From positions 362,266,001 through 362,330,000 of the forward strand of contig OZ024742.1 of the NCBI GenBank assembly GCA_964016885.1: a stretch of DNA of 64,000 bases, in the 5' to 3' direction. This document shows, piece after piece, positions 29,486-47,002 of this stretch. Under the pieces are notes generated by a model. The model was not told the origin of the DNA and ran no database searches. It saw only the letters and a program-made list of their open reading frames with translations. Both the position numbers and the translations under genes were made by a program. Each line of letters opens with the position of its first letter. Within the stretch, counting starts at the first letter, position 1. The stretch is from Eledone cirrhosa (taxonomy: Eukaryota).

Positions 29486-29518
<33 letters not shown>

Positions 29519-29524
<6 letters not shown>

Positions 29525-29875
29525 AAAAAGAGATGAAATCGAAAATGCAACTGGAGTCTTATTTAATTTAGAATTATATATATTTATTTGGTTCCTTTAC
29601 CGGTTTCGCAGTTCTTCTGCTTTTCAAAAGGTGAGTTGAGATGGAGGGTCTGTGGTTTTTCTCAGATGTGAGAAAAACCACAGACCCTCCATCTCAACTA
29701 AACTTTTGAAAAGCAGAAGAACTGCGAAACCGGTAAAGGAACCAAATAAATATATATAATTTTAAAAAAAATAAGACTCCAGTTGCATTTTCGATTTTAT
29801 CTCTTTTTCTTTATACTTTCACTCGTGTAGGACACCTCGGTTATTTTTCATTTTGTAAAAAAACCTCACTTTCTA

Positions 29876-29962: not shown

Positions 29963-29969
<7 letters not shown>

Positions 29970-31722
29970 AAGTTAAATAAAAGTCAAATGATTAAAATAT
30001 AGCTTCGTTTATTACTGCTATATATATTTCAGTGACAGTCATCTTTGGCTGTAACCTCTTCAGGCAGTTTGAATTAGTATGGTATAGACAAGTACATATG
30101 TTGTTGAGGTGTATAATATTGTCATTACTCTGATATGCCTAGTTCCTTGTTGGGTTGTTATTTCATTGAGGAACTGGAATCATATGAATTCAAACAAACG
30201 AATTTCAGTGTTAAAGGTTCTCTTCTCCTCTCATTGGTCAGTTATTAGAACATTCCTCATTCTAAGTGTTGTTATTGTTGGAGTTAGCTTAAAAAATTGA
30301 TAAAATGGTAGAAGGGACAAGGTGTTAAAGGAGCAAAATAACAAAAAAAGTGTCAAACTTCCTATTGGTCAGTTCTGAGAGCATTCCTCAGTCAGAAGTC
30401 TATATAATTCTTTCTGTGGTGAGGTTCCCTGTAGTGTTTTTGTTTGCCATTGTTCAGTACATTTGACCTCTACCATTATTTTGGTAGTGTTGTTGGTGTT
30501 GTGGTCAGCTTATATCTTGCTGCTGCTAACAATTTAGAAGTATCCAGTGTGTGTTTTTTCTTCATCCCTCCTGCCACCATCTCTCATAGTAGTGTTGGTG
30601 GTGGTGGTGGTGGTGGTGGTGGTGGTGGGGGGGGGGGTGTTCTTCCATGTATATGAAGAAATATAAGGCAATAAATGAAGAAAACAGAAAATAAATAAAT
30701 AATATAATAAAATAATTAATATAATTTGTATAATTTGAAAATGAATAAATAAATAGAGAATAAAGAATAAAGAATAAATGAAAAATTGGTGAAAAAGTAA
30801 TGAAAATGAATATGGAGAAGTGAAAAATAATGTAGGATAAAGTGTGTGTGTGCTATAACCAATCTCAAGGTCAGAAATATGTTGGATAGATTGGTATGAG
30901 GGCAAGATGTTAAGATAAGATAATCAAACTAAATGTGTTTGTGTTATAATCAATCTCAACTTAAAAATAAATATAAGGTGATACAGTGAAGAGGGCAGAA
31001 AACAAATAACAAATTAATAAAGAAAAATCAAGATTTAAAATTGGAACTTGAAAATCAGAAATCTAGTAAATTAAAAAGTGTTTGTGTTATATAGATGTTG
31101 GCCAAATTATAATGGCTGTGTCCGATTCTATCTCTAGGCTATCATGGTGTCTTCTCAGCCTGGGTTGTTCCCTATGGCTTGAGGGGAGTTCACAACCTAG
31201 GGTGTTGTTACTGCCCATATAGCTTGAGGGAGGTCTGGCCGAGAGGTGTTTTCATGTTCTGATGAAGTCCCTATAGCTTGAGGGGAGTTCACATCTTCTT
31301 GCGTTGCTACTGTCCATATATCTTGAGAAAAAAATGTTCTAATAACTGACCAATGAGAGGAGAAGAGGACCTTTGACACTGAAATTCGTTTGTTTGAATT
31401 CATATGATTCCCGTTCCTCAGTGAAATAACAACCCAACAAGGAACTGGGCATATCAGAGTAATGACAATATTATACACCTCAACAACATATGTACTTGTC
31501 TATACCATACTAATTCAAACTGCCTGAAGAGGTCACAGCCAAAGATGGCTGTCACTGAAATATATATAGCAGTAATAAACGAAGCTAAATTTTAATCATT
31601 TGACTTTTATTTAACTTTATTTTACACTACTCCGGAGTAACCAAACCAACCTGCGCACTTCGTCGAGTGCTCCAGCCTGCATACCGAGGTGTTGGTATAC
31701 TACCAACATAAACTAAAAATCT
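29963..31722. mobile_element. PLE-type insertion with about 290-bp inverted pLTR arms and canonical hammerhead
   Basis: Arms 29963-30253/31334-31624; 'actgc CTGAAGA g gtcacagcca aaga tggctgtcac t GAAA tatata TA gcagt' (31519-31573); tail with GAGTGCT at 31665. Confidence 0.85.
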
Positions 31723-31775
31723 CTCTCTCTATATATATATATATACATATATATATGTATATTTATATATTTATA

Positions 31776-31860
<85 letters not shown>

Positions 31861-31871
<11 letters not shown>

Positions 31872-34800
31872 AATATAGACATAGAATATTCGAAAATATT
31901 CTGTATGTTTATAATAAACATTTTGAAGACCTAATCGCTATAGAATAGAATACGTCACGTATTACAATTAGATTCTCGATAAAAGCAAGGGAAGTAATCT
32001 ACGCGTTTCATTCTCGTTAGAAATCATCAGGACTACATATCCAGTGCTTTTATCGAGAATGACACAGCTAGAGACTTATAGAATACTTAGCTGTGTACAG
32101 GAACTGGTTTGAAAGAGCGGTTGCCGGTCCGGCAGAAATTAGAAATTGGAATAAATGCTCTGAAATAGCGATATATATGTGAATATAGACATAGAATATT
32201 CGAAAATATTCTGTATGTTTATAATAAACATTTTGAAGACCTAATCGCTATAGAATAGAATACGTCACGTATTACAATTAGATTCTCGATAAAAGCAAGG
32301 GAAGTAATCTACGCGTTTCATTCTCGTTAGAAATCATCAGGACTACATATCCAGTGCTTTTATCGAGAATGACACAGCTAGAGACTTATAGAATACTTAG
32401 CTGTGTACAGGAACTGGTTTGAAAGAGCGGTTGCCGGTCCGGCAGAAATTAGAAATTGGAATAAATGCTCTGAAATAGCGATATATATGTGAATATAGAC
32501 ATAGAATATTCGAAAATATTCTGTATGTTTATAATAAACATTTTGAAGACCTAATCGCTATAGAATAGAATACGTCACGTATTACAATTAGATTCTCGAT
32601 AAAAGCAAGGGAAGTAATCTACGCGTTTCATTCTCGTTAGAAATCATCAGGACTACATATCCAGTGCTTTTATCGAGAATGACACAGCTAGAGACTTATA
32701 GAATACTTAGCTGTGTACAGGAACTGGTTTGAAAGAGCGGTTGCCGGTCCGGCAGAAATTAGAAATTGGAATAAATGCTCTGAAATAGCGATATATATGT
32801 GAATATAGACATAGAATATTCGAAAATATTCTGTATGTTTATAATAAACATTTTGAAGACCTAATCGCTATAGAATAGAATACGTCACGTATTACAATTA
32901 GATTCTCGATAAAAGCAAGGGAAGTAATCTACGCGTTTCATTCTCGTTAGAAATCATCAGGACTACATATCCAGTGCTTTTATCGAGAATGACACAGCTA
33001 GAGACTTATAGAATACTTAGCTGTGTACAGGAACTGGTTTGAAAGAGCGGTTGCCGGTCCGGCAGAAATTAGAAATTGGAATAAATGCTCTGAAATAGCG
33101 ATATATATGTGAATATAGACATAGAATATTCGAAAATATTCTGTATGTTTATAATAAACATTTTGAAGACCTAATCGCTATAGAATAGAATTCTATAGCG
33201 TATTCTATTCTATAGCGATTAGGTCTTCAAAATGTTTATTATAAACATACAGAATATTTTCGAATATTCTATGTCTATATTCACATATATATCGCTATTT
33301 CAGAGCATTTATTCCAATTTCTAATTTCTGCCGGACCGGCAACCGCTCTTTCAAACCAGTTCCTGTACACAGCTAAGTATTCTATAAGTCTCTAGCTGTG
33401 TCATTCTCGATAAAAGCACTGGATATGTAGTCCTGATGATTTCTAACGAGAATGAAACGCGTAGATTACTTCCCTTGCTTTTATCGAGAATCTAATTGTA
33501 ATACGTGACGTATTCTATTCTATAGCGATTAGGTCTTCAAAATGTTTATTATAAACATACAGAATATTTTCGAATATTCTATGTCTATATTCACATATAT
33601 ATCGCTATTTCAGAGCATTTATTCCAATTTCTAATTTCTGCCGGACCGGCAACCGCTCTTTCAAACCAGTTCCTGTACACAGCTAAGTATTCTATAAGTC
33701 TCTAGCTGTGTCATTCTCGATAAAAGCACTGGATATGTAGTCCTGATGATTTCTAACGAGAATGAAACGCGTAGATTACTTCCCTTGCTTTTATCGAGAA
33801 TCTAATTGTAATACGTGACGTATTCTATTCTATAGCGATTAGGTCTTCAAAATGTTTATTATAAACATACAGAATATTTTCGAATATTCTATGTCTATAT
33901 TCACATATATATCGCTATTTCAGAGCATTTATTCCAATTTCTAATTTCTGCCGGACCGGCAACCGCTCTTTCAAACCAGTTCCTGTACACAGCTAAGTAT
34001 TCTATAAGTCTCTAGCTGTGTCATTCTCGATAAAAGCACTGGATATGTAGTCCTGATGATTTCTAACGAGAATGAAACGCGTAGATTACTTCCCTTGCTT
34101 TTATCGAGAATCTAATTGTAATACGTGACGTATTCTATTCTATAGCGATTAGGTCTTCAAAATGTTTATTATAAACATACAGAATATTTTCGAATATTCT
34201 ATGTCTATATTCACATATATATCGCTATTTCAGAGCATTTATTCCAATTTCTAATTTCTGCCGGACCGGCAACCGCTCTTTCAAACCAGTTCCTGTACAC
34301 AGCTAAGTATTCTATAAGTCTCTAGCTGTGTCATTCTCGATAAAAGCACTGGATATGTAGTCCTGATGATTTCTAACGAGAATGAAACGCGTAGATTACT
34401 TCCCTTGCTTTTATCGAGAATCTAATTGTAATACGTGACGTATTCTATTCTATAGCGATTAGGTCTTCAAAATGTTTATTATAAACATACAGAATATTTT
34501 CGAATATTCTATGTCTATATTCACATATATATCGCTATTTCAGAGCATTTATTCCAATTTCTAATTTCTGCCGGACCGGCAACCGCTCTTTCAAACCAGT
34601 TCCTGTACACAGCTAAGTATTCTATAAGTCTCTAGCTGTGTCATTCTCGATAAAAGCACTGGATATGTAGTCCTGATGATTTCTAACGAGAATGAAACGC
34701 GTAGATTACTTCCCTTGCTTTTATCGAGAATCTAATTGTAATACGTGACGTATTCTATTCTATAGCGATTAGGTCTTCAAAATGTTTATTATAAACATAC

Positions 34801-37800
34801 AGAATATTTTCGAATATTCTATGTCTATATTCACATATATATCGCTATTTCAGAGCATTTATTCCAATTTCTAATTTCTGCCGGACCGGCAACCGCTCTT
34901 TCAAACCAGTTCCTGTACACAGCTAAGTATTCTATAAGTCTCTAGCTGTGTCATTCTCGATAAAAGCACTGGATATGTAGTCCTGATGATTTCTAACGAG
35001 AATGAAACGCGTAGATTACTTCCCTTGCTTTTATCGAGAATCTAATTGTAATACGTGACGTATTCTATTCTATAGCGATTAGGTCTTCAAAATGTTTATT
35101 ATAAACATACAGAATATTTTCGAATATTCTATGTCTATATTCACATATATATCGCTATTTCAGAGCATTTATTCCAATTTCTAATTTCTGCCGGACCGGC
35201 AACCGCTCTTTCAAACCAGTTCCTGTACACAGCTAAGTATTCTATAAGTCTCTAGCTGTGTCATTCTCGATAAAAGCACTGGATATGTAGTCCTGATGAT
35301 TTCTAACGAGAATGAAACGCGTAGATTACTTCCCTTGCTTTTATCGAGAATCTAATTGTAATACGTGACGTATTCTATTCTATAGCGATTAGGTCTTCAA
35401 AATGTTTATTATAAACATAGAGAATATTTTCGAATATTCTATGTCTATATTCACATATATATCGCTATTTCAGAGCATTTATTCCAATTTCTAATTTCTG
35501 CCGGACCGGCAACCGCTCTTTCAAACCAGTTCCTGTACACAGCTAAGTATTCTATAAGTCTCTAGCTGTGTCATTCTCGATAAAAGCACTGGATATGTAG
35601 TCCTGATGATTTCTAACGAGAATGAAACGCGTAGATTACTTCCCTTGCTTTTATCGAGAATCTAATTGTAATACGTGACGTATTCTATTCTATAGCGATT
35701 AGGTCTTCAAAATGTTTATTATAAACATACAGAATATTTTCGAATATTCTATGTCTATATTCACATATATATCGCTATTTCAGAGCATTTATTCCAATTT
35801 CTAATTTCTGCCGGACCGGCAACCGCTCTTTCAAACCAGTTCCTGTACACAGCTAAGTATTCTATAAGTCTCTAGCTGTGTCATTCTCGATAAAAGCACT
35901 GGATATGTAGTCCTGATGATTTCTAACGAGAATGAAACGCGTAGATTACTTCCCTTGCTTTTATCGAGAATCTAATTGTAATACGTGACGTATTCTATTC
36001 TATAGCGATTAGGTCTTCAAAATGTTTATTATAAACATACAGAATATTTTCGAATATTCTATGTCTATATTCACATATATATCGCTATTTCAGAGCATTT
36101 ATTCCAATTTCTAATTTCTGCCGGACCGGCAACCGCTCTTTCAAACCAGTTCCTGTACACAGCTAAGTATTCTATAAGTCTCTAGCTGTGTCATTCTCGA
36201 TAAAAGCACTGGATATGTAGTCCTGATGATTTCTAACGAGAATGAAACGCGTAGATTACTTCCCTTGCTTTTATCGAGAATCTAATTGTAATACGTGACG
36301 TATTCTATTCTATAGCGATTAGGTCTTCAAAATGTTTATTATAAACATACAGAATATTTTCGAATATTCTATGTCTATATTCACATATATATCGCTATTT
36401 CAGAGCATTTATTCCAATTTCTAATTTCTGCCGGACCGGCAACCGCTCTTTCAAACCAGTTCCTGTACACAGCTAAGTATTCTATAAGTCTCTAGCTGTG
36501 TCATTCTCGATAAAAGCACTGGATATGTAGTCCTGATGATTTCTAACGAGAATGAAACGCGTAGATTACTTCCCTTGCTTTTATCGAGAATCTAATTGTA
36601 ATACGTGACGTATTCTATTCTATAGCGATTAGGTCTTCAAAATGTTTATTATAAACATACAGAATATTTTCGAATATTCTATGTCTATATTCACATATAT
36701 ATCGCTATTTCAGAGCATTTATTCCAATTTCTAATTTCTGCCGGACCGGCAACCGCTCTTTCAAACCAGTTCCTGTACACAGCTAAGTATTCTATAAGTC
36801 TCTAGCTGTGTCATTCTCGATAAAAGCACTGGATATGTAGTCCTGATGATTTCTAACGAGAATGAAACGCGTAGATTACTTCCCTTGCTTTTATCGAGAA
36901 TCTAATTGTAATACGTGACGTATTCTATTCTATAGCGATTAGGTCTTCAAAATGTTTATTATAAACATACAGAATATTTTCGAATATTCTATGTCTATAT
37001 TCACATATATATCGCTATTTCAGAGCATTTATTCCAATTTCTAATTTCTGCCGGACCGGCAACCGCTCTTTCAAACCAGTTCCTGTACACAGCTAAGTAT
37101 TCTATAAGTCTCTAGCTGTGTCATTCTCGATAAAAGCACTGGATATGTAGTCCTGATGATTTCTAACGAGAATGAAACGCGTAGATTACTTCCCTTGCTT
37201 TTATCGAGAATCTAATTGTAATACGTGACGTATTCTATTCTATAGCGATTAGGTCTTCAAAATGTTTATTATAAACATACAGAATATTTTCGAATATTCT
37301 ATGTCTATATTCACATATATATCGCTATTTCAGAGCATTTATTCCAATTTCTAATTTCTGCCGGACCGGCAACCGCTCTTTCAAACCAGTTCCTGTACAC
37401 AGCTAAGTATTCTATAAGTCTCTAGCTGTGTCATTCTCGATAAAAGCACTGGATATGTAGTCCTGATGATTTCTAACGAGAATGAAACGCGTAGATTACT
37501 TCCCTTGCTTTTATCGAGAATCTAATTGTAATACGTGACGTATTCTATTCTATAGCGATTAGGTCTTCAAAATGTTTATTATAAACATACAGAATATTTT
37601 CGAATATTCTATGTCTATATTCACATATATATCGCTATTTCAGAGCATTTATTCCAATTTCTAATTTCTGCCGGACCGGCAACCGCTCTTTCAAACCAGT
37701 TCCTGTACACAGCTAAGTATTCTATAAGTCTCTAGCTGTGTCATTCTCGATAAAAGCACTGGATATGTAGTCCTGATGATTTCTAACGAGAATGAAACGC

Positions 37801-40800
37801 GTAGATTACTTCCCTTGCTTTTATCGAGAATCTAATTGTAATACGTGACGTATTCTATTCTATAGCGATTAGGTCTTCAAAATGTTTATTATAAACATAC
37901 AGAATATTTTCGAATATTCTATGTCTATATTCACATATATATCGCTATTTCAGAGCATTTATTCCAATTTCTAATTTCTGCCGGACCGGCAACCGCTCTT
38001 TCAAACCAGTTCCTGTACACAGCTAAGTATTCTATAAGTCTCTAGCTGTGTCATTCTCGATAAAAGCACTGGATATGTAGTCCTGATGATTTCTAACGAG
38101 AATGAAACGCGTAGATTACTTCCCTTGCTTTTATCGAGAATCTAATTGTAATACGTGACGTATTCTATTCTATAGCGATTAGGTCTTCAAAATGTTTATT
38201 ATAAACATACAGAATATTTTCGAATATTCTATGTCTATATTCACATATATATCGCTATTTCAGAGCATTTATTCCAATTTCTAATTTCTGCCGGACCGGC
38301 AACCGCTCTTTCAAACCAGTTCCTGTACACAGCTAAGTATTCTATAAGTCTCTAGCTGTGTCATTCTCGATAAAAGCACTGGATATGTAGTCCTGATGAT
38401 TTCTAACGAGAATGAAACGCGTAGATTACTTCCCTTGCTTTTATCGAGAATCTAATTGTAATACGTGACGTATTCTATTCTATAGCGATTAGGTCTTCAA
38501 AATGTTTATTATAAACATACAGAATATTTTCGAATATTCTATGTCTATATTCACATATATATCGCTATTTCAGAGCATTTATTCCAATTTCTAATTTCTG
38601 CCGGACCGGCAACCGCTCTTTCAAACCAGTTCCTGTACACAGCTAAGTATTCTATAAGTCTCTAGCTGTGTCATTCTCGATAAAAGCACTGGATATGTAG
38701 TCCTGATGATTTCTAACGAGAATGAAACGCGTAGATTACTTCCCTTGCTTTTATCGAGAATCTAATTGTAATACGTGACGTATTCTATTCTATAGCGATT
38801 AGGTCTTCAAAATGTTTATTATAAACATACAGAATATTTTCGAATATTCTATGTCTATATTCACATATATATCGCTATTTCAGAGCATTTATTCCAATTT
38901 CTAATTTCTGCCGGACCGGCAACCGCTCTTTCAAACCAGTTCCTGTACACAGCTAAGTATTCTATAAGTCTCTAGCTGTGTCATTCTCGATAAAAGCACT
39001 GGATATGTAGTCCTGATGATTTCTAACGAGAATGAAACGCGTAGATTACTTCCCTTGCTTTTATCGAGAATCTAATTGTAATACGTGACGTATTCTATTC
39101 TATAGCGATTAGGTCTTCAAAATGTTTATTATAAACATACAGAATATTTTCGAATATTCTATGTCTATATTCACATATATATCGCTATTTCAGAGCATTT
39201 ATTCCAATTTCTAATTTCTGCCGGACCGGCAACCGCTCTTTCAAACCAGTTCCTGTACACAGCTAAGTATTCTATAAGTCTCTAGCTGTGTCATTCTCGA
39301 TAAAAGCACTGGATATGTAGTCCTGATGATTTCTAACGAGAATGAAACGCGTAGATTACTTCCCTTGCTTTTATCGAGAATCTAATTGTAATACGTGACG
39401 TATTCTATTCTATAGCGATTAGGTCTTCAAAATGTTTATTATAAACATACAGAATATTTTCGAATATTCTATGTCTATATTCACATATATATCGCTATTT
39501 CAGAGCATTTATTCCAATTTCTAATTTCTGCCGGACCGGCAACCGCTCTTTCAAACCAGTTCCTGTACACAGCTAAGTATTCTATAAGTCTCTAGCTGTG
39601 TCATTCTCGATAAAAGCACTGGATATGTAGTCCTGATGATTTCTAACGAGAATGAAACGCGTAGATTACTTCCCTTGCTTTTATCGAGAATCTAATTGTA
39701 ATACGTGACGTATTCTATTCTATAGCGATTAGGTCTTCAAAATGTTTATTATAAACATACAGAATATTTTCGAATATTCTATGTCTATATTCACATATAT
39801 ATCGCTATTTCAGAGCATTTATTCCAATTTCTAATTTCTGCCGGACCGGCAACCGCTCTTTCAAACCAGTTCCTGTACACAGCTAAGTATTCTATAAGTC
39901 TCTAGCTGTGTCATTCTCGATAAAAGCACTGGATATGTAGTCCTGATGATTTCTAACGAGAATGAAACGCGTAGATTACTTCCCTTGCTTTTATCGAGAA
40001 TCTAATTGTAATACGTGACGTATTCTATTCTATAGCGATTAGGTCTTCAAAATGTTTATTATAAACATACAGAATATTTTCGAATATTCTATGTCTATAT
40101 TCACATATATATCGCTATTTCAGAGCATTTATTCCAATTTCTAATTTCTGCCGGACCGGCAACCGCTCTTTCAAACCAGTTCCTGTACACAGCTAAGTAT
40201 TCTATAAGTCTCTAGCTGTGTCATTCTCGATAAAAGCACTGGATATGTAGTCCTGATGATTTCTAACGAGAATGAAACGCGTAGATTACTTCCCTTGCTT
40301 TTATCGAGAATCTAATTGTAATACGTGACGTATTCTATTCTATAGCGATTAGGTCTTCAAAATGTTTATTATAAACATACAGAATATTTTCGAATATTCT
40401 ATGTCTATATTCACATATATATCGCTATTTCAGAGCATTTATTCCAATTTCTAATTTCTGCCGGACCGGCAACCGCTCTTTCAAACCAGTTCCTGTACAC
40501 AGCTAAGTATTCTATAAGTCTCTAGCTGTGTCATTCTCGATAAAAGCACTGGATATGTAGTCCTGATGATTTCTAACGAGAATGAAACGCGTAGATTACT
40601 TCCCTTGCTTTTATCGAGAATCTAATTGTAATACGTGACGTATTCTATTCTATAGCGATTAGGTCTTCAAAATGTTTATTATAAACATACAGAATATTTT
40701 CGAATATTCTATGTCTATATTCACATATATATCGCTATTTCAGAGCATTTATTCCAATTTCTAATTTCTGCCGGACCGGCAACCGCTCTTTCAAACCAGT

Positions 40801-43800
40801 TCCTGTACACAGCTAAGTATTCTATAAGTCTCTAGCTGTGTCATTCTCGATAAAAGCACTGGATATGTAGTCCTGATGATTTCTAACGAGAATGAAACGC
40901 GTAGATTACTTCCCTTGCTTTTATCGAGAATCTAATTGTAATACGTGACGTATTCTATTCTATAGCGATTAGGTCTTCAAAATGTTTATTATAAACATAC
41001 AGAATATTTTCGAATATTCTATGTCTATATTCACATATATATCGCTATTTCAGAGCATTTATTCCAATTTCTAATTTCTGCCGGACCGGCAACCGCTCTT
41101 TCAAACCAGTTCCTGTACACAGCTAAGTATTCTATAAGTCTCTAGCTGTGTCATTCTCGATAAAAGCACTGGATATGTAGTCCTGATGATTTCTAACGAG
41201 AATGAAACGCGTAGATTACTTCCCTTGCTTTTATCGAGAATCTAATTGTAATACGTGACGTATTCTATTCTATAGCGATTAGGTCTTCAAAATGTTTATT
41301 ATAAACATACAGAATATTTTCGAATATTCTATGTCTATATTCACATATATATCGCTATTTCAGAGCATTTATTCCAATTTCTAATTTCTGCCGGACCGGC
41401 AACCGCTCTTTCAAACCAGTTCCTGTACACAGCTAAGTATTCCATAAGTCTCTAGCTGTGTCATTCTCGATAAAAGCACTGGATATGTAGTCCTGATGAT
41501 TTCTAACGAGAATGAAACGCGTAGATTACTTCCCTTGCTTTTATCGAGAATCTAATTGTAATACGTGACGTATTCTATTCTATAGCGATTAGGTCTTCAA
41601 AATGTTTATTATAAACATACAGAATATTTTCGAATATTCTATGTCTATATTCACATATATATCGCTATTTCAGAGCATTTATTCCAATTTCTAATTTCTG
41701 CCGGACCGGCAACCGCTCTTTCAAACCAGTTCCTGTACACAGCTAAGTATTCTATAAGTCTCTAGCTGTGTCATTCTCGATAAAAGCACTGGATATGTAG
41801 TCCTGATGATTTCTAACGAGAATGAAACGCGTAGATTACTTCCCTTGCTTTTATCGAGAATCTAATTGTAATACGTGACGTATTCTATTCTATAGCGATT
41901 AGGTCTTCAAAATGTTTATTATAAACATACAGAATATTTTCGAATATTCTATGTCTATATTCACATATATATCGCTATTTCAGAGCATTTATTCCAATTT
42001 CTAATTTCTGCCGGACCGGCAACCGCTCTTTCAAACCAGTTCCTGTACACAGCTAAGTATTCTATAAGTCTCTAGCTGTGTCATTCTCGATAAAAGCACT
42101 GGATATGTAGTCCTGATGATTTCTAACGAGAATGAAACGCGTAGATTACTTCCCTTGCTTTTATCGAGAATCTAATTGTAATACGTGACGTATTCTATTC
42201 TATAGCGATTAGGTCTTCAAAATGTTTATTATAAACATACAGAATATTTTCGAATATTCTATGTCTATATTCACATATATATCGCTATTTCAGAGCATTT
42301 ATTCCAATTTCTAATTTCTGCCGGACCGGCAACCGCTCTTTCAAACCAGTTCCTGTACACAGCTAAGTATTCTATAAGTCTCTAGCTGTGTCATTCTCGA
42401 TAAAAGCACTGGATATGTAGTCCTGATGATTTCTAACGAGAATGAAACGCGTAGATTACTTCCCTTGCTTTTATCGAGAATCTAATTGTAATACGTGACG
42501 TATTCTATTCTATAGCGATTAGGTCTTCAAAATGTTTATTATAAACATACAGAATATTTTCGAATATTCTATGTCTATATTCACATATATATCGCTATTT
42601 CAGAGCATTTATTCCAATTTCTAATTTCTGCCGGACCGGCAACCGCTCTTTCAAACCAGTTCCTGTACACAGCTAAGTATTCTATAAGTCTCTAGCTGTG
42701 TCATTCTCGATAAAAGCACTGGATATGTAGTCCTGATGATTTCTAACGAGAATGAAACGCGTAGATTACTTCCCTTGCTTTTATCGAGAATCTAATTGTA
42801 ATACGTGACGTATTCTATTCTATAGCGATTAGGTCTTCAAAATGTTTATTATAAACATACAGAATATTTTCGAATATTCTATGTCTATATTCACATATAT
42901 ATCGCTATTTCAGAGCATTTATTCCAATTTCTAATTTCTGCCGGACCGGCAACCGCTCTTTCAAACCAGTTCCTGTACACAGCTAAGTATTCTATAAGTC
43001 TCTAGCTGTGTCATTCTCGATAAAAGCACTGGATATGTAGTCCTGATGATTTCTAACGAGAATGAAACGCGTAGATTACTTCCCTTGCTTTTATCGAGAA
43101 TCTAATTGTAATACGTGACGTATTCTATTCTATAGCGATTAGGTCTTCAAAATGTTTATTATAAACATACAGAATATTTTCGAATATTCTATGTCTATAT
43201 TCACATATATATCGCTATTTCAGAGCATTTATTCCAATTTCTAATTTCTGCCGGACCGGCAACCGCTCTTTCAAACCAGTTCCTGTACACAGCTAAGTAT
43301 TCTATAAGTCTCTAGCTGTGTCATTCTCGATAAAAGCACTGGATATGTAGTCCTGATGATTTCTAACGAGAATGAAACGCGTAGATTACTTCCCTTGCTT
43401 TTATCGAGAATCTAATTGTAATACGTGACGTATTCTATTCTATAGCAATTAGGTCTTCAAAATGTTTATTATAAACATACAGAATATTTTCGAATATTCT
43501 ATGTCTATATTCACATATATATCGCTATTTCAGAGCATTTATTCCAATTTCTAATTTCTGCCGGACCGGCAACCGCTCTTTCAAACCAGTTCCTGTACAC
43601 AGCTAAGTATTCTATAAGTCTCTAGCTGTGTCATTCTCGATAAAAGCACTGGATATGTAGTCCTGATGATTTCTAACGAGAATGAAACGCGTAGATTACT
43701 TCCCTTGCTTTTATCGAGAATCTAATTGTAATACGTGACGTATTCTATTCTATAGCGATTAGGTCTTCAAAATGTTTATTATAAACATACAGAATATTTT

Positions 43801-44793
43801 CGAATATTCTATGTCTATATTCACATATATATCGCTATTTCAGAGCATTTATTCCAATTTCTAATTTCTGCCGGACCGGCAACCGCTCTTTCAAACCAGT
43901 TCCTGTACACAGCTAAGTATTCTATAAGTCTCTAGCTGTGTCATTCTCGATAAAAGCACTGGATATGTAGTCCTGATGATTTCTAACGAGAATGAAACGC
44001 GTAGATTACTTCCCTTGCTTTTATCGAGAATCTAATTGTAATACGTGACGTATTCTATTCTATAGCGATTAGGTCTTCAAAATGTTTATTATAAACATAC
44101 AGAATATTTTCGAATATTCTATGTCTATATTCACATATATATCGCTATTTCAGAGCATTTATTCCAATTTCTAATTTCTGCCGGACCGGCAACCGCTCTT
44201 TCAAACCAGTTCCTGTACACAGCTAAGTATTCTATAAGTCTCTAGCTGTGTCATTCTCTATAAAAGCACTGGATATGTAGTCCTGATGATTTCTAACGAG
44301 AATGAAACGCGTAGATTACTTCCCTTGCTTTTATCGAGAATCTAATTGTAATACGTGACGTATTCTATTCTATAGCGATTAGGTCTTCAAAATGTTTATT
44401 ATAAACATACAGAATATTTTCGAATATTCTATGACTATATTCACATATATATCGCTATTTCAGAGCATTTATTCCAATTTCTAATTTCTGCCGGACCGGC
44501 AACCGCTCTTTCAAACCAGTTCCTGTACACAGCTAAGTATTCTATAAGTCTCTAGCTGTGTCATTCTCGATAAAAGCACTGGATATGTAGTCCTGATGAT
44601 TTCTAACGAGAATGAAACGCGTAGATTACTTCCCTTGCTTTTATCGAGAATCTAATTGTAATACGTGACGTATTCTATTCTATAGCGATTAGGTCTTCAA
44701 AATGTTTATTATAAACATACAGAATATTTTCGAATATTCTATGTCTATATTCACATATATATCGCTATTTCAGAGCATTTATTCCAATTTCTA
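31861..44793. repeat. 310-bp tandem array (about 41.6 units) of a hammerhead-bearing unit; candidate non-LTR retrozyme
   Basis: Exact 310-bp period; minus-oriented block 31861-33190 (about 4.3 units), plus-oriented block 33199-44793 (about 37.4 units); (TA)n on both sides; no ORF. Confidence 0.95.
33403..33491 (+). ncRNA. Type I hammerhead ribozyme (first of 37 plus-strand copies; 4 more on the minus strand)
   Basis: Stem I gtagtc/gattac, CTGATGA 33433-33439, stem II ttct-aacg-agaa, GAAA 33454-33457, palindromic stem III ACGCGT, GUA cleavage after 33463; 16-bp outer stem attctcgataaaagca/tgcttttatcgagaat. Confidence 0.88.
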
Positions 44794-44808
44794 TATATAT
44801 ATATATAT

Positions 44809-44952
<144 letters not shown>

Positions 44953-45037
44953 ATAAAAAAAATGAATAAAAAGAATAAAAAGAACAAACAAAAAGATTAA
45001 CACACTAAAATACTGCCAACAGCAACACACACTTTCG

Positions 45038-46890
45038 ATGGCTATCACCTTGCTTGAGTTAAAAAAATATAACCTCCAGCAATGCATGATGACCATCATC
45101 AATAACCAGAGAATAGCTGAAGAGAGCTGGGCCATTGAGAAAATCAAACTCAACCCCAAAGTGTTCTTTTCATTTGCTAAAAAACACAAGGTCAGCGTCT
45201 CCACTGTTGGCCCCGTAGTTGATGACAATGGCACACTCCAAGACAATGCCAAAACCATGGGCGAGATACTGCAGAAACAATACTGCTCTGTTTTCAGCAA
45301 TCCTGATATGGCCGATCTGGGCCGTACCAGTGATGTTAATTTCTCCACACACTATATCAGACATAACGTTTGGCGCCCCTGATGCCTTAGCGGCAATAAA
45401 AGAAATTAAACACAATTCAGCAGTAGGCCCCGATGGGTTCCCTGCTTGTGTCCTGAAGGTGTGTCGACACCAACTTGCATCTCCTCTGGTTAATCTGTGG
45501 AGGAACTCACTGGACTCTGGCTATATTCCTGAAAACTTTCTGTCCCAGTCCATTGTCCCAGTCTTCAAAAAGGGAAATAAGTCCCTTGCAGTGAACTACC
45601 ATCCGATCTCACTCACCTCTCATATTATCAAGGTATTTGAGAGGGTGATGAGATCACGAATAACTCACTTTCTTGAAAGCAACGGTCTGCTGAACTCCAA
45701 CCAACATGGGTTCCGTAATGGAAGGGACTGCGTAACGCAGCTCCTGCATCACTTTGACGATGTTTTGAGAGCCTTGGGAGAGGGCTCCAACACTGATGTC
45801 ATCTACCTTGATTTCAGCAAGGCCTTCGACAGGGTTGATCATGAGATTCTACTGAAAAAACTATCCAATGTTGGTGTCTCTGGAAGGTTACTACAGTGGA
45901 TCAAATGTTTCCTGACACGCAGAACCCAGCATGTTGTAGTTGAAGGAGTAAAATCAAGCCCTGCCAAAGTCAGCAGTGGCGTCCCACATGGTACTGTGTT
46001 GGGCCCACTTCTTTTCATCATCTACATTAATGACATTACTGACATCATCAAGCACAGCAACATCAGAATCTTCGCAGACGATTCCAAGCTCCAAAGGGTC
46101 ATCAATGAAGTGGGTGACCGGACTTGCCCTCAGTCAGACCTACTGGCTGTTATCCAATGGGCAGAAATGAATAATATGCTGTTGAATTAATCCACTTTGG
46201 AAAAATTTGAATTAATCCACTTTGGAAAAAAGGATGCCCTGAAACTACCATACTCTCTTCTTTCAGGTGAAACTCTAGTGGCATCCAATAACATCAGAGA
46301 CCCGAGAGTAATTGTGGACAACGACATAAGCTGGGCCACTCATATAAACAGCAAAGTTGATATGGCCCGCAGAATGTGTCCCTGGATTCTTAGAACTTTC
46401 CAGTCGAGAGATATCCACACTGTTATCCTTCTCTTCTCCACTTTTGCCCGACCCCACCTTGGATACTGTTGTCCACTGTGGTCACTCCACACGAAACAAA
46501 GTATTATGAAAGTTGAAGCACCCCAAAGTTCAATTACAAAAAAGATAGATGGCATGACAGGCCTTGACTATCGTAGTCGATTAGAAAAGCTGAAACTTTA
46601 TTCTCTCCACCGTCGCTGTGAGCGCTACATTATCTGTATGGTGTGGAAAATATTCCATCAGCTTTGCCCAAATGATGTTGGCATCACCTTTAGTGTACAC
46701 CCAAGGCTTGGGCCCCGTGCTATCCGCCACAACAAAAATCCCACTCGCATCACATAACAACAATACGGCACAATTATTTCACCTCAATTGGCCCTGCACT
46801 CTTTAACATTACACCAAGACACGTCAAAGCAGAGACAGACCCCATCACGTTCAAGAAGTCTTTGGATAAATTCCTTCAAGAAATCCCGGT
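45038..46890 (+). pseudogene. CR1-clade LINE ORF2 (RT) remnant
   Basis: NYHPISLTS, NQHGFR, YLDFSKAFDRVDH, SGVPHGTVLGP, IFADDSKL, RLEKLKLYSL, FKKSLDKFL; frameshifts and a 25-bp duplication at 46183-46230. Confidence 0.9.
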
Positions 46891-46892
46891 AG

Positions 46893-47002
46893 TAACATGA
46901 AAAAAAATTAGATCTTCAAAGGCTTTCAGCAATACACTTCATAGACGCCATAACAATTTCGATATATGTATGTATGTATATATATATTTACACACACACA
47001 CA

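Follow-up and report, generated by a model that had tools for sequence, protein, structure and literature searches.

A stretch of 64,000 nt on chromosome C3 of the ~3.0-Gb Eledone cirrhosa genome (contig OZ024742.1), referred to as the window and in which all positions are counted, carries an insertion made up of 310-bp tandem units, each with a predicted hammerhead ribozyme. The insertion lies in a TA microsatellite (C3:362,297,861-362,310,793) and consists of two arms of the same unit that meet head-to-head:

31730..31860, no strand: left (TA)n target microsatellite, the final bases of which blend into the A end of the element
31861..33191, reverse strand: short inverted arm of 4.29 variant-free units, ending at unit column 94 (A end)
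33192..33198, no strand: head-to-head junction, a 7-nt linker between the arms
33199..44793, forward strand: long arm of 37.40 head-to-tail units of 310 bp, ending at unit column 125 (B end)
33427..33469, forward strand: first copy of the predicted minimal type I hammerhead, one per unit, with the predicted cut after 33463
44763..44793, forward strand: the "tail", 31 nt (up to ~42) past the A end, in the B arm only
44794..44922, no strand: right target, a short (TA)n followed by (TC)55

The unit is non-coding with a GC content of ~0.345, which fits the size (~150-450 bp) and GC content (<50%) of retrozymes, and judged by its sequence the repeat is a retrozyme without long terminal repeats (non-LTR retrozyme) as the class is defined in the parts of PMC7229834 covered here. 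The insertion consists of 310-bp units only, so that an open reading frame (ORF) for a reverse transcriptase (RT) with a GIY-YIG endonuclease cannot fit, and it is not an autonomous Penelope-like element (PLE). The RNA-sense 3' end of the short arm faces outward and lies in the range of A ends in the family (columns 83-94), and the 3' end of the long arm lies in the range of B ends (columns 118-127). The 5' ends of the short and long arms are at unit columns 4 and 1, and the centre of the insertion is therefore a near-perfect palindrome. The sequence at 33190-33200 corresponds to unit columns 9-19 and may be a short fold-back or re-priming copy. No target-site duplication (TSD) was discernible at the locus, and (TA)n is present on both flanks.

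The motifs of the predicted hammerhead are, in order, a stem I of 6 bp, CUGAUGA, a stem II with a U.U base and a 4-nt loop, GAAA, and a stem III formed by a 2-bp palindrome. Folding of the whole unit placed stem I inside a long hairpin (z -3.9); the stability of the 81-nt ribozyme piece folded alone was not unusual. Across 11 family variants and one PLE copy, 89.7% of the stem cells were paired as compared to 29-62% in slid controls, a value equalled or beaten by 10 of 500 shuffles; these rows are related sequences, which makes this support weak. Selection that keeps fixed variants out of the catalytic core was considered and rejected, as the observed number (0 of 39 versus ~1.5 expected) was not significant.

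The unit belongs to a dispersed multi-locus family, with 4,084 exact matches to its 37-nt core in the genome. Forward matches to the ends numbered 769 for B and 666 for A genome-wide (controls 0 and 22), 72 loci were located in the first 115 Mb of C1, and the family comprises an estimated 1,500-1,900 loci in the genome. We parsed 114 loci unit by unit, the window included, and used 27 further stretches (L226-L252) for architecture only; the statistics for the 114 loci omit these stretches and an extension of L175, and two extension stretches (L033 and L042) were empty. Before counting, we dropped 35 nt at every inner end, ambiguous outer ends that merge into TA, and unit-rounds with at least 5 clustered private events (junction overrun or nested sequence).

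A clean head-to-head pair of A and B arms with the 3' ends outward was found at 106 of the 114 parsed loci. Because this sample was found mostly via the B end, we take the first 115 Mb of C1, where 60 of the 72 loci have two head-to-head arms in (TA)n, as the fair figure. Loci found via the ribozyme core had both arms in 9 of 10 cases, and every end at these nine adjoins a TA-rich run. The 12 loci found via the A end only included 9 with a single arm and 3 with both, one of these an apparent duplicate across a gap. Overall, 223 of 224 arm ends adjoin TA runs, a proportion that is largely built into the search patterns. At G000 C1:56.26 Mb a single insertion (L245 and L062) is duplicated on either side of an assembly gap, which is an artefact at that place.

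The inner ends are uniformly placed (Kolmogorov-Smirnov test, p 0.66). The 5' ends do not accumulate at the ribozyme cut (6 of 213 versus 8.9 expected), nor are errors enriched at the cut-site junction (2 versus 3.8 expected). At the inner junctions, 65 of 90 have no insert and a mean overlap of 2.0 nt, compared to 0.76 nt at random, while the remaining 25 hold inserts that are often derived from the unit. The lengths of the two arms within a locus are uncorrelated (rho 0.12), and arms shorter than one unit exist in the family.

By analogy with Penelope, the fixed but differing outer ends (columns 83-94 versus 118-127) are the tail signature of two RT start sites, and the tail would be the segment between them. 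PLEs are described, in the parts of PMC8557442 covered, as leaving inverted 5'-truncated copies, a tail of 30-40 bp at one end and (TA)n targets; the family has the inverted 5'-truncated copy, the one-sided tail and the TA-rich target. In vitro, both strands of AT-rich DNA are nicked by a PLE protein, which extends each of them and begins reverse transcription at two neighbouring sites, one at either limit of the tail; the protein is predicted to be dimeric (PMC11167929). That the retrozymes were inserted as two-ended PLE-type insertions is highly probable. Older sister repeats (~77% identical) retain the region round both ends and not this ribozyme sequence, which suggests that the region round the ends is a recognition site.

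Such sister repeats were seen at L047, L092, L095, L143, L140, L124, L090 and L034; they match unit columns 14-190 at 73-82% identity. The copy at L047 shares the B end, beyond which (TA)n begins, and that at L095 carries another hammerhead. A second family of tandem ribozyme repeats, with a unit of ~490-510 bp, an internal (TA)n and a different minimal hammerhead, is located at L134:7700-10000.

Several young PLE families in the genome share this two-ended architecture, namely one with an ORF for RT and GIY-YIG domains (P0001), L135 and L164/L165. The L164/L165 family has 400 matches, and its arms differ at 2 of 3,000 bp. Its two-ended insertions (G000 C1:41.17 Mb; C1:328.44 Mb) have a tail of ~68 nt and encode a divergent RT with 26% identity to P0001 over 230 aa and no Pfam RT match, and 26 of the 28 nt in the ribozyme core are the same as in the retrozyme. 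On these features L164/L165, which is possibly Hydra-like, is a candidate mobiliser. When 50 loci of the GIY-YIG type and 28 L164-family stretches were compared in search of the partner, with 150 of 10,596 GIY-YIG candidates scored, no tail homology emerged. Unit-like matches near GIY-YIG loci were rejected as PLE ends, as they turned out to be older sister repeats.

The nature of the template is indicated by the distribution of fixed variants. The 114 loci carry 38 fixed haplotypes, 28 of which occur at a single locus and are fixed throughout it. Fixed variants were present in both arms at 68 of the 69 informative two-armed loci, for which the chance expectation is 0.07-0.15. Insertions that lie side by side differ in haplotype (L234, L236), in the case of L234 at a distance of 73 bp, and L194 has eight fixed differences and no private single nucleotide variant (SNV) in 22.7 units. 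Because the fixed haplotypes span both arms, neighbours differ and L194 is uniform, new variants pass through a bottleneck of one unit and are then re-expanded at insertion, which is predicted for a monomer circle and not for linear copying. Private SNVs recur among loci near the chance level (q 0.0016 versus 0.0011). Template jumping among pooled linear monomers was rejected since the arrays are not haplotype mosaics and the cut-site junctions are precise. We conclude that a circular monomer is probably part of the template cycle.

Unit-by-unit alignment of the long arm identified exactly five substitutions and no indels, each substitution being private to one unit:

35420, C>G: unit 8 of the long arm
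41443, T>C: unit 27 of the long arm
43447, G>A: unit 34 of the long arm
44259, G>T: unit 36 of the long arm
44434, T>A: unit 37 of the long arm

These are the five substitutions listed by eye in the original prediction, and its copy number of ~37 as well as the absence of indels and of hits in the catalytic core were likewise confirmed in the assembly. All five lie outside the 12 columns of the hammerhead core, which chance would give with a probability of ~0.82. In the assembly the near-zero divergence is genuine, yet it does not stand out, since the density of private SNVs at the locus (3.9e-4 per base) is at the family average (3.55e-4; 124 SNVs in 349 kb at 114 loci). From other loci with this haplotype, 3.3 SNVs would be expected in the insertion, with P(>=5) = 0.24.

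Private SNVs are absent from 54 of the 114 loci and overdispersed among loci (p ~1e-14), and their rate differs ~16-fold between haplotype groups, from 1.4e-4 to 2.2e-3. Because the rates vary by haplotype group and the counts are overdispersed, most private SNVs appear to have arisen after insertion, and RT and assembly errors together amount to at most ~1.4e-4. For the same reasons we rejected the possibility that the private SNVs are RT errors of a single synthesis; strand asymmetries were marginal (p 0.03-0.6 in six classes).

The original prediction had taken the star-like pattern of SNVs as an argument for copying of one circular template rather than unequal crossover. In simple simulations, the probability that all five SNVs are private was 8e-4 under steady turnover and 0.036 under stepwise growth from one unit, 0.11-0.27 under growth from 10-20 units, and 0.57-0.77 after an early duplication of an 18-unit block. 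The five SNVs are therefore weak evidence: long turnover is excluded, but early block duplication is still compatible with the pattern. No shared variants in runs or higher-order periods, as expected of a classical satellite, are present at this locus. The outer 1.35 kb of the arm accounts for three of the five SNVs (post hoc p 0.009-0.019) and units 9-26 are free of SNVs, whereas no edge bias of private SNVs is seen family-wide.

The strong evidence for reverse transcription of a circle lies in the family as a whole and goes beyond what the SNVs of a single locus could show. The arm haplotypes agree, the ends are of Penelope type and the 5' ends are random, which argues for two target-primed reverse transcriptions round one circle. 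Our favoured reading, to which we give a probability of about 0.55, is that the retrozyme was inserted from both break ends in (TA)n by a Penelope-like RT/GIY-YIG enzyme that copied one RNA circle ~4 times on one side and ~37 times on the other. Rolling-circle reverse transcription of a circular template, as originally proposed from the long arm, thus stands as the best reading, but with two events, one per arm, in place of one.

Under this reading, transcripts of an array would self-cleave, probably as dimers, and then ligate to circles. A PLE protein, possibly as a dimer, would bind the tail region and nick both (TA)n strands, and cDNA would start at site A on one strand and at site B, ~35 nt downstream, on the other. 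Both cDNAs would roll round one circle and stop at random, here after ~4 turns on one side and ~37 on the other. They would then be joined by microhomology or fold-back priming, and second strands would be filled in, with private SNVs mostly accumulating after insertion. More tentatively, and at slightly less than even odds, the telomerase-related RT of PLEs may be a two-headed rolling-circle machine in vivo, in which one complex on one 310-nt ring makes two starts, ~35 nt from each other, and on each side goes round the ring independently, up to 37 times (11.6 kb).

A number of observations weigh against copying of a monomer circle by a PLE enzyme. An Rfam scan of the unit returned no hammerhead match, only chance matches, and self-cleavage and circularisation of the array transcripts are as yet predicted from the motif. 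For the anole PLE, ribozyme cleavage is dispensable in vitro and a multimeric RNA template has been proposed (PMC11167929). L164 matches the retrozyme in the conserved core of the ribozyme only (score 45, with a shuffle maximum of 44), and none of the three PLE 3' ends examined has tail homology to the retrozyme. Shared variants occur at 15 of the 114 loci, with ~0.3 recurrent pairs expected by chance, and at 3 of the 6 loci with arms of at least 15 units. At L077 and L091 a variant sits in the outermost unit of each arm and nowhere else, a pattern that copying of a monomer circle fails to explain. At L064 and L218 the variant changes within one arm, at its inner end. For all four loci a multimeric template, a switch of template or conversion of one arm by the other could be responsible. 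Rolling by the RT and RNA-to-RNA rolling followed by reverse transcription cannot be separated with genomic data.

The length of the long arm is a further point on the same side. Arms have a median length of 3.9 units, and 5 of 222 have at least 15 units, not counting a 21.3-unit arm at L175. The per-arm probability of 37.4 units was 1e-5 to 4e-5 for the gamma distribution, which gave the best fit, 3-5e-4 for the exponential and 4-5e-3 for the lognormal. Both of the other arms with at least 25 units contain shared variants. One of the loci with repeating markers, L086 and L138 (G000 C1:97,461,500-97,476,500), has an arm of 45.4 units in which four markers repeat at a period of 27 units, partly 18, and two linked changes are found in 9 of 46 units; at L054, two markers repeat at 7 units. 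The claim of more than 11 kb of processive synthesis is unsupported as it was stated, given this length, the shared variants in the comparable arms and the crowding of SNVs towards the outer edge. Arms of 20.1 and 21.3 units with private variants only do exist (L194 and L175), which makes RT runs of at least 6 kb plausible. We lean slightly towards the long arm being essentially as inserted, in one run of 11.6 kb.

The alternative that survives best, although we consider it unlikely, is a circle-based, two-ended insertion of ~10-20 units that was enlarged early on by unequal exchange or block duplication at the DNA level. The long arm is an outlier in length, the markers at L086 and L054 repeat at 27 and 7 units, the distribution of SNVs along the arm is unlike that in the family, and the probability of five private SNVs remains at 0.11-0.77. 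The original prediction had likewise cautioned that a recent DNA-level amplification would look similar. On the other hand, the long arm carries no duplicated variant, private-only arms of 20-21 units exist elsewhere, and a lognormal tail permits several arms of this length among ~3,000.

Improbable, in our view, is copying by the PLE enzyme of a linear multimer, either a transcript of a source array or the product of an RNA-to-RNA rolling circle, with no rolling in the RT step. Minimal hammerheads cleave slowly, according to the parts of PMC6765202 covered, and both the outermost-unit variant shared by the arms of L077 and L091 and the inner-end switch at L064 and L218 would be accounted for. 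But linear copying can neither lengthen arrays nor fix new variants in all units, whereas 28 of the 38 haplotypes are fixed at a single locus, and the near-chance recurrence of private SNVs and the lack of 5' ends at the cut site also speak against it.

Still less probable is that, for an element that is itself real, the assembly misrepresents how many copies the locus has or how uniform they are, through over-expansion or polishing of the interior. The copy number and SNVs of the locus were read from the assembly, in a 12.9-kb array with a palindromic centre and sparse interior SNVs, and the family locus L062/L245 occurs twice across a gap. However, private SNVs, the closely spaced haplotypes at L234 and the higher-order structure at L086 are all preserved, and preserved haplotypes argue against wholesale polishing, the other look-alike named in the original prediction. 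A fold-back read was rejected as the source of the inverted arms since these differ in their family-specific ends and their flanks. The left flank junction is single-copy; a search via the left flank for a second haplotype of the locus gave a single match in the genome. Other samples also contain the unit, including the joint between head-to-tail copies: in the independent run X1 the identical sequence forms a contig with a period of 310, and X20 has a sister haplotype. Two Hi-C runs (X23 and X24) had 0 reads on the unit and are mute on the locus, and of the neighbouring sequence X1, X2, X4 and X16 contain short, mostly 85-95% pieces of the adjacent long interspersed nuclear element (LINE) only. 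In runs X1-X20, which carry 18 organism labels, 65-100% of the words of the unit are present; this sharing may reflect related species, shared labels, carry-over or horizontal spread.

Ordinary satellite birth, by growth of a solitary PLE terminal piece through unequal crossover or by amplification and reinsertion of a DNA circle, is largely refuted by the architecture and very improbable: exchange at the DNA level did occur at some arrays (15 of 114 loci), but there are 124 private SNVs and shared variants at those 15 loci only, five private SNVs of five have a probability of 8e-4 under steady turnover, and the inverted arms, fixed RT-type ends, (TA)n targeting and sub-unit arms are left unexplained.

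The surroundings of the array contain other insertions. Directly to its left, at 29963-31720, is an older head-to-head insertion of another family with 292-nt arms that are 97% complementary, hammerhead-like motifs at 30063 (reverse strand) and 31524 (forward strand) and an extra right tail of ~95 nt; the retrozyme landed in the (TA)n at the end of this insertion. Small inverted insertions were also seen at 7321-7590, 21713-22143 and 29518-29815, the first two with paired hammerhead-like motifs, and single motifs occur at 7844 (reverse strand) and 13357 (forward strand). Judged from its sequence, the window resembles a string of insertions of PLE type that landed in microsatellites. The segment at 45000-46900 on the forward strand holds a degraded LINE-type RT fragment (RVT_1, E 8e-15) that is unrelated to the array.

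On how animal retrozymes spread and how the tandem and inverted structures of PLEs originate, the published models, as far as the sources were covered, differ: PMC7229834 has reverse transcription on a circle, PMC11167929 a linear RNA that is multimeric, and the preprint bioRxiv 10.64898/2026.07.22.740005 local unequal crossover. Retrozymes, the route from circle to tandem cDNA and the link to PLEs are already in print (PMC7229834; bioRxiv 10.64898/2026.07.22.740005; PMC7761336; PMC11722881; PMC6765202, in the parts covered). Two-armed, tailed retrozyme insertions with per-insertion haplotypes were not found in the literature searched, in which neither journals behind a subscription nor the supplementary material of PMC7229834 and of the 2026 preprint were included. 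The family combines the full PLE insertion pattern with multimeric arms and a single haplotype at each insertion, which makes the rival models testable within one genome, and the ends of the family define an RNA site that the PLE RT should recognise. The family is more important than the single array that was flagged. If the two-headed machine is true, the genome would hold ~1,500 records that each fix the haplotype of one RNA molecule, and the tandem, inverted and tail structures of autonomous PLEs would be explained too. Processive, strand-displacing, target-primed reverse transcription of small circles would also be of interest to genome-writing.

In twin priming of LINE-1, two cDNAs from both strands meet head-to-head at a microhomology junction, as is proposed here. 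The second primer in LINE-1 is internal and at a variable site, and the two parts do not duplicate each other, whereas the retrozyme starts are fixed ~35 nt apart and both arms repeat one unit.

The comparisons that follow concern the parts of each source that were covered. The metazoan non-LTR retrozymes of Cervera and de la Pena 2020 (PMC7229834) are similar in being non-coding tandem units of 150-450 bp with low GC content and one type I hammerhead per unit. In coral they reach 62-mers, and it was suggested for them that the RT of a PLE or LINE turns a primed circular RNA into tandem cDNA. They differ in being head-to-tail repeats with occasional long TSDs, and inverted arms, a tail, (TA)n targeting and per-insertion haplotypes are not described; expression and circles were demonstrated for them, while the family presented here is known from genomic sequence. 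For vertebrate retrozymes (Li, Clavereau, Pollet 2026, bioRxiv 10.64898/2026.07.22.740005), with arrays of 180-300 units, the link to PLEs is made by co-occurrence and pseudo-long-terminal-repeat (pLTR) similarity; that preprint turns to local amplification through unequal crossover in its discussion, its abstract speaks of rolling-circle mobilisation, and the parts covered contain no evidence from insertion structure.

Chlamys PLEs such as MRC1 (PMC8557442) are likewise non-autonomous, moved by PLEs and often multicopy in head-to-tail orientation, but they are algal, mostly lack a hammerhead and share 3' similarity with an autonomous partner, of which none was found here. The endonuclease-bearing PLEs (Neptune, Hydra, Naiad and Poseidon; Craig 2021, PMC8557442; Frangieh 2024, PMC11167929) share with the retrozyme the inverted 5'-truncated copy, the tail of 30-40 bp, the (TA)n target, the lack of a discernible TSD, the minimal hammerhead with a palindromic stem III and, by the mechanism proposed here, two RT starts and the nicking and extension of both strands. 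Unlike them, the retrozyme has no ORF, and where their copies are partial tandems of an element of 3-4 kb, each of its arms is a long and perfect multimer of a 310-nt unit.

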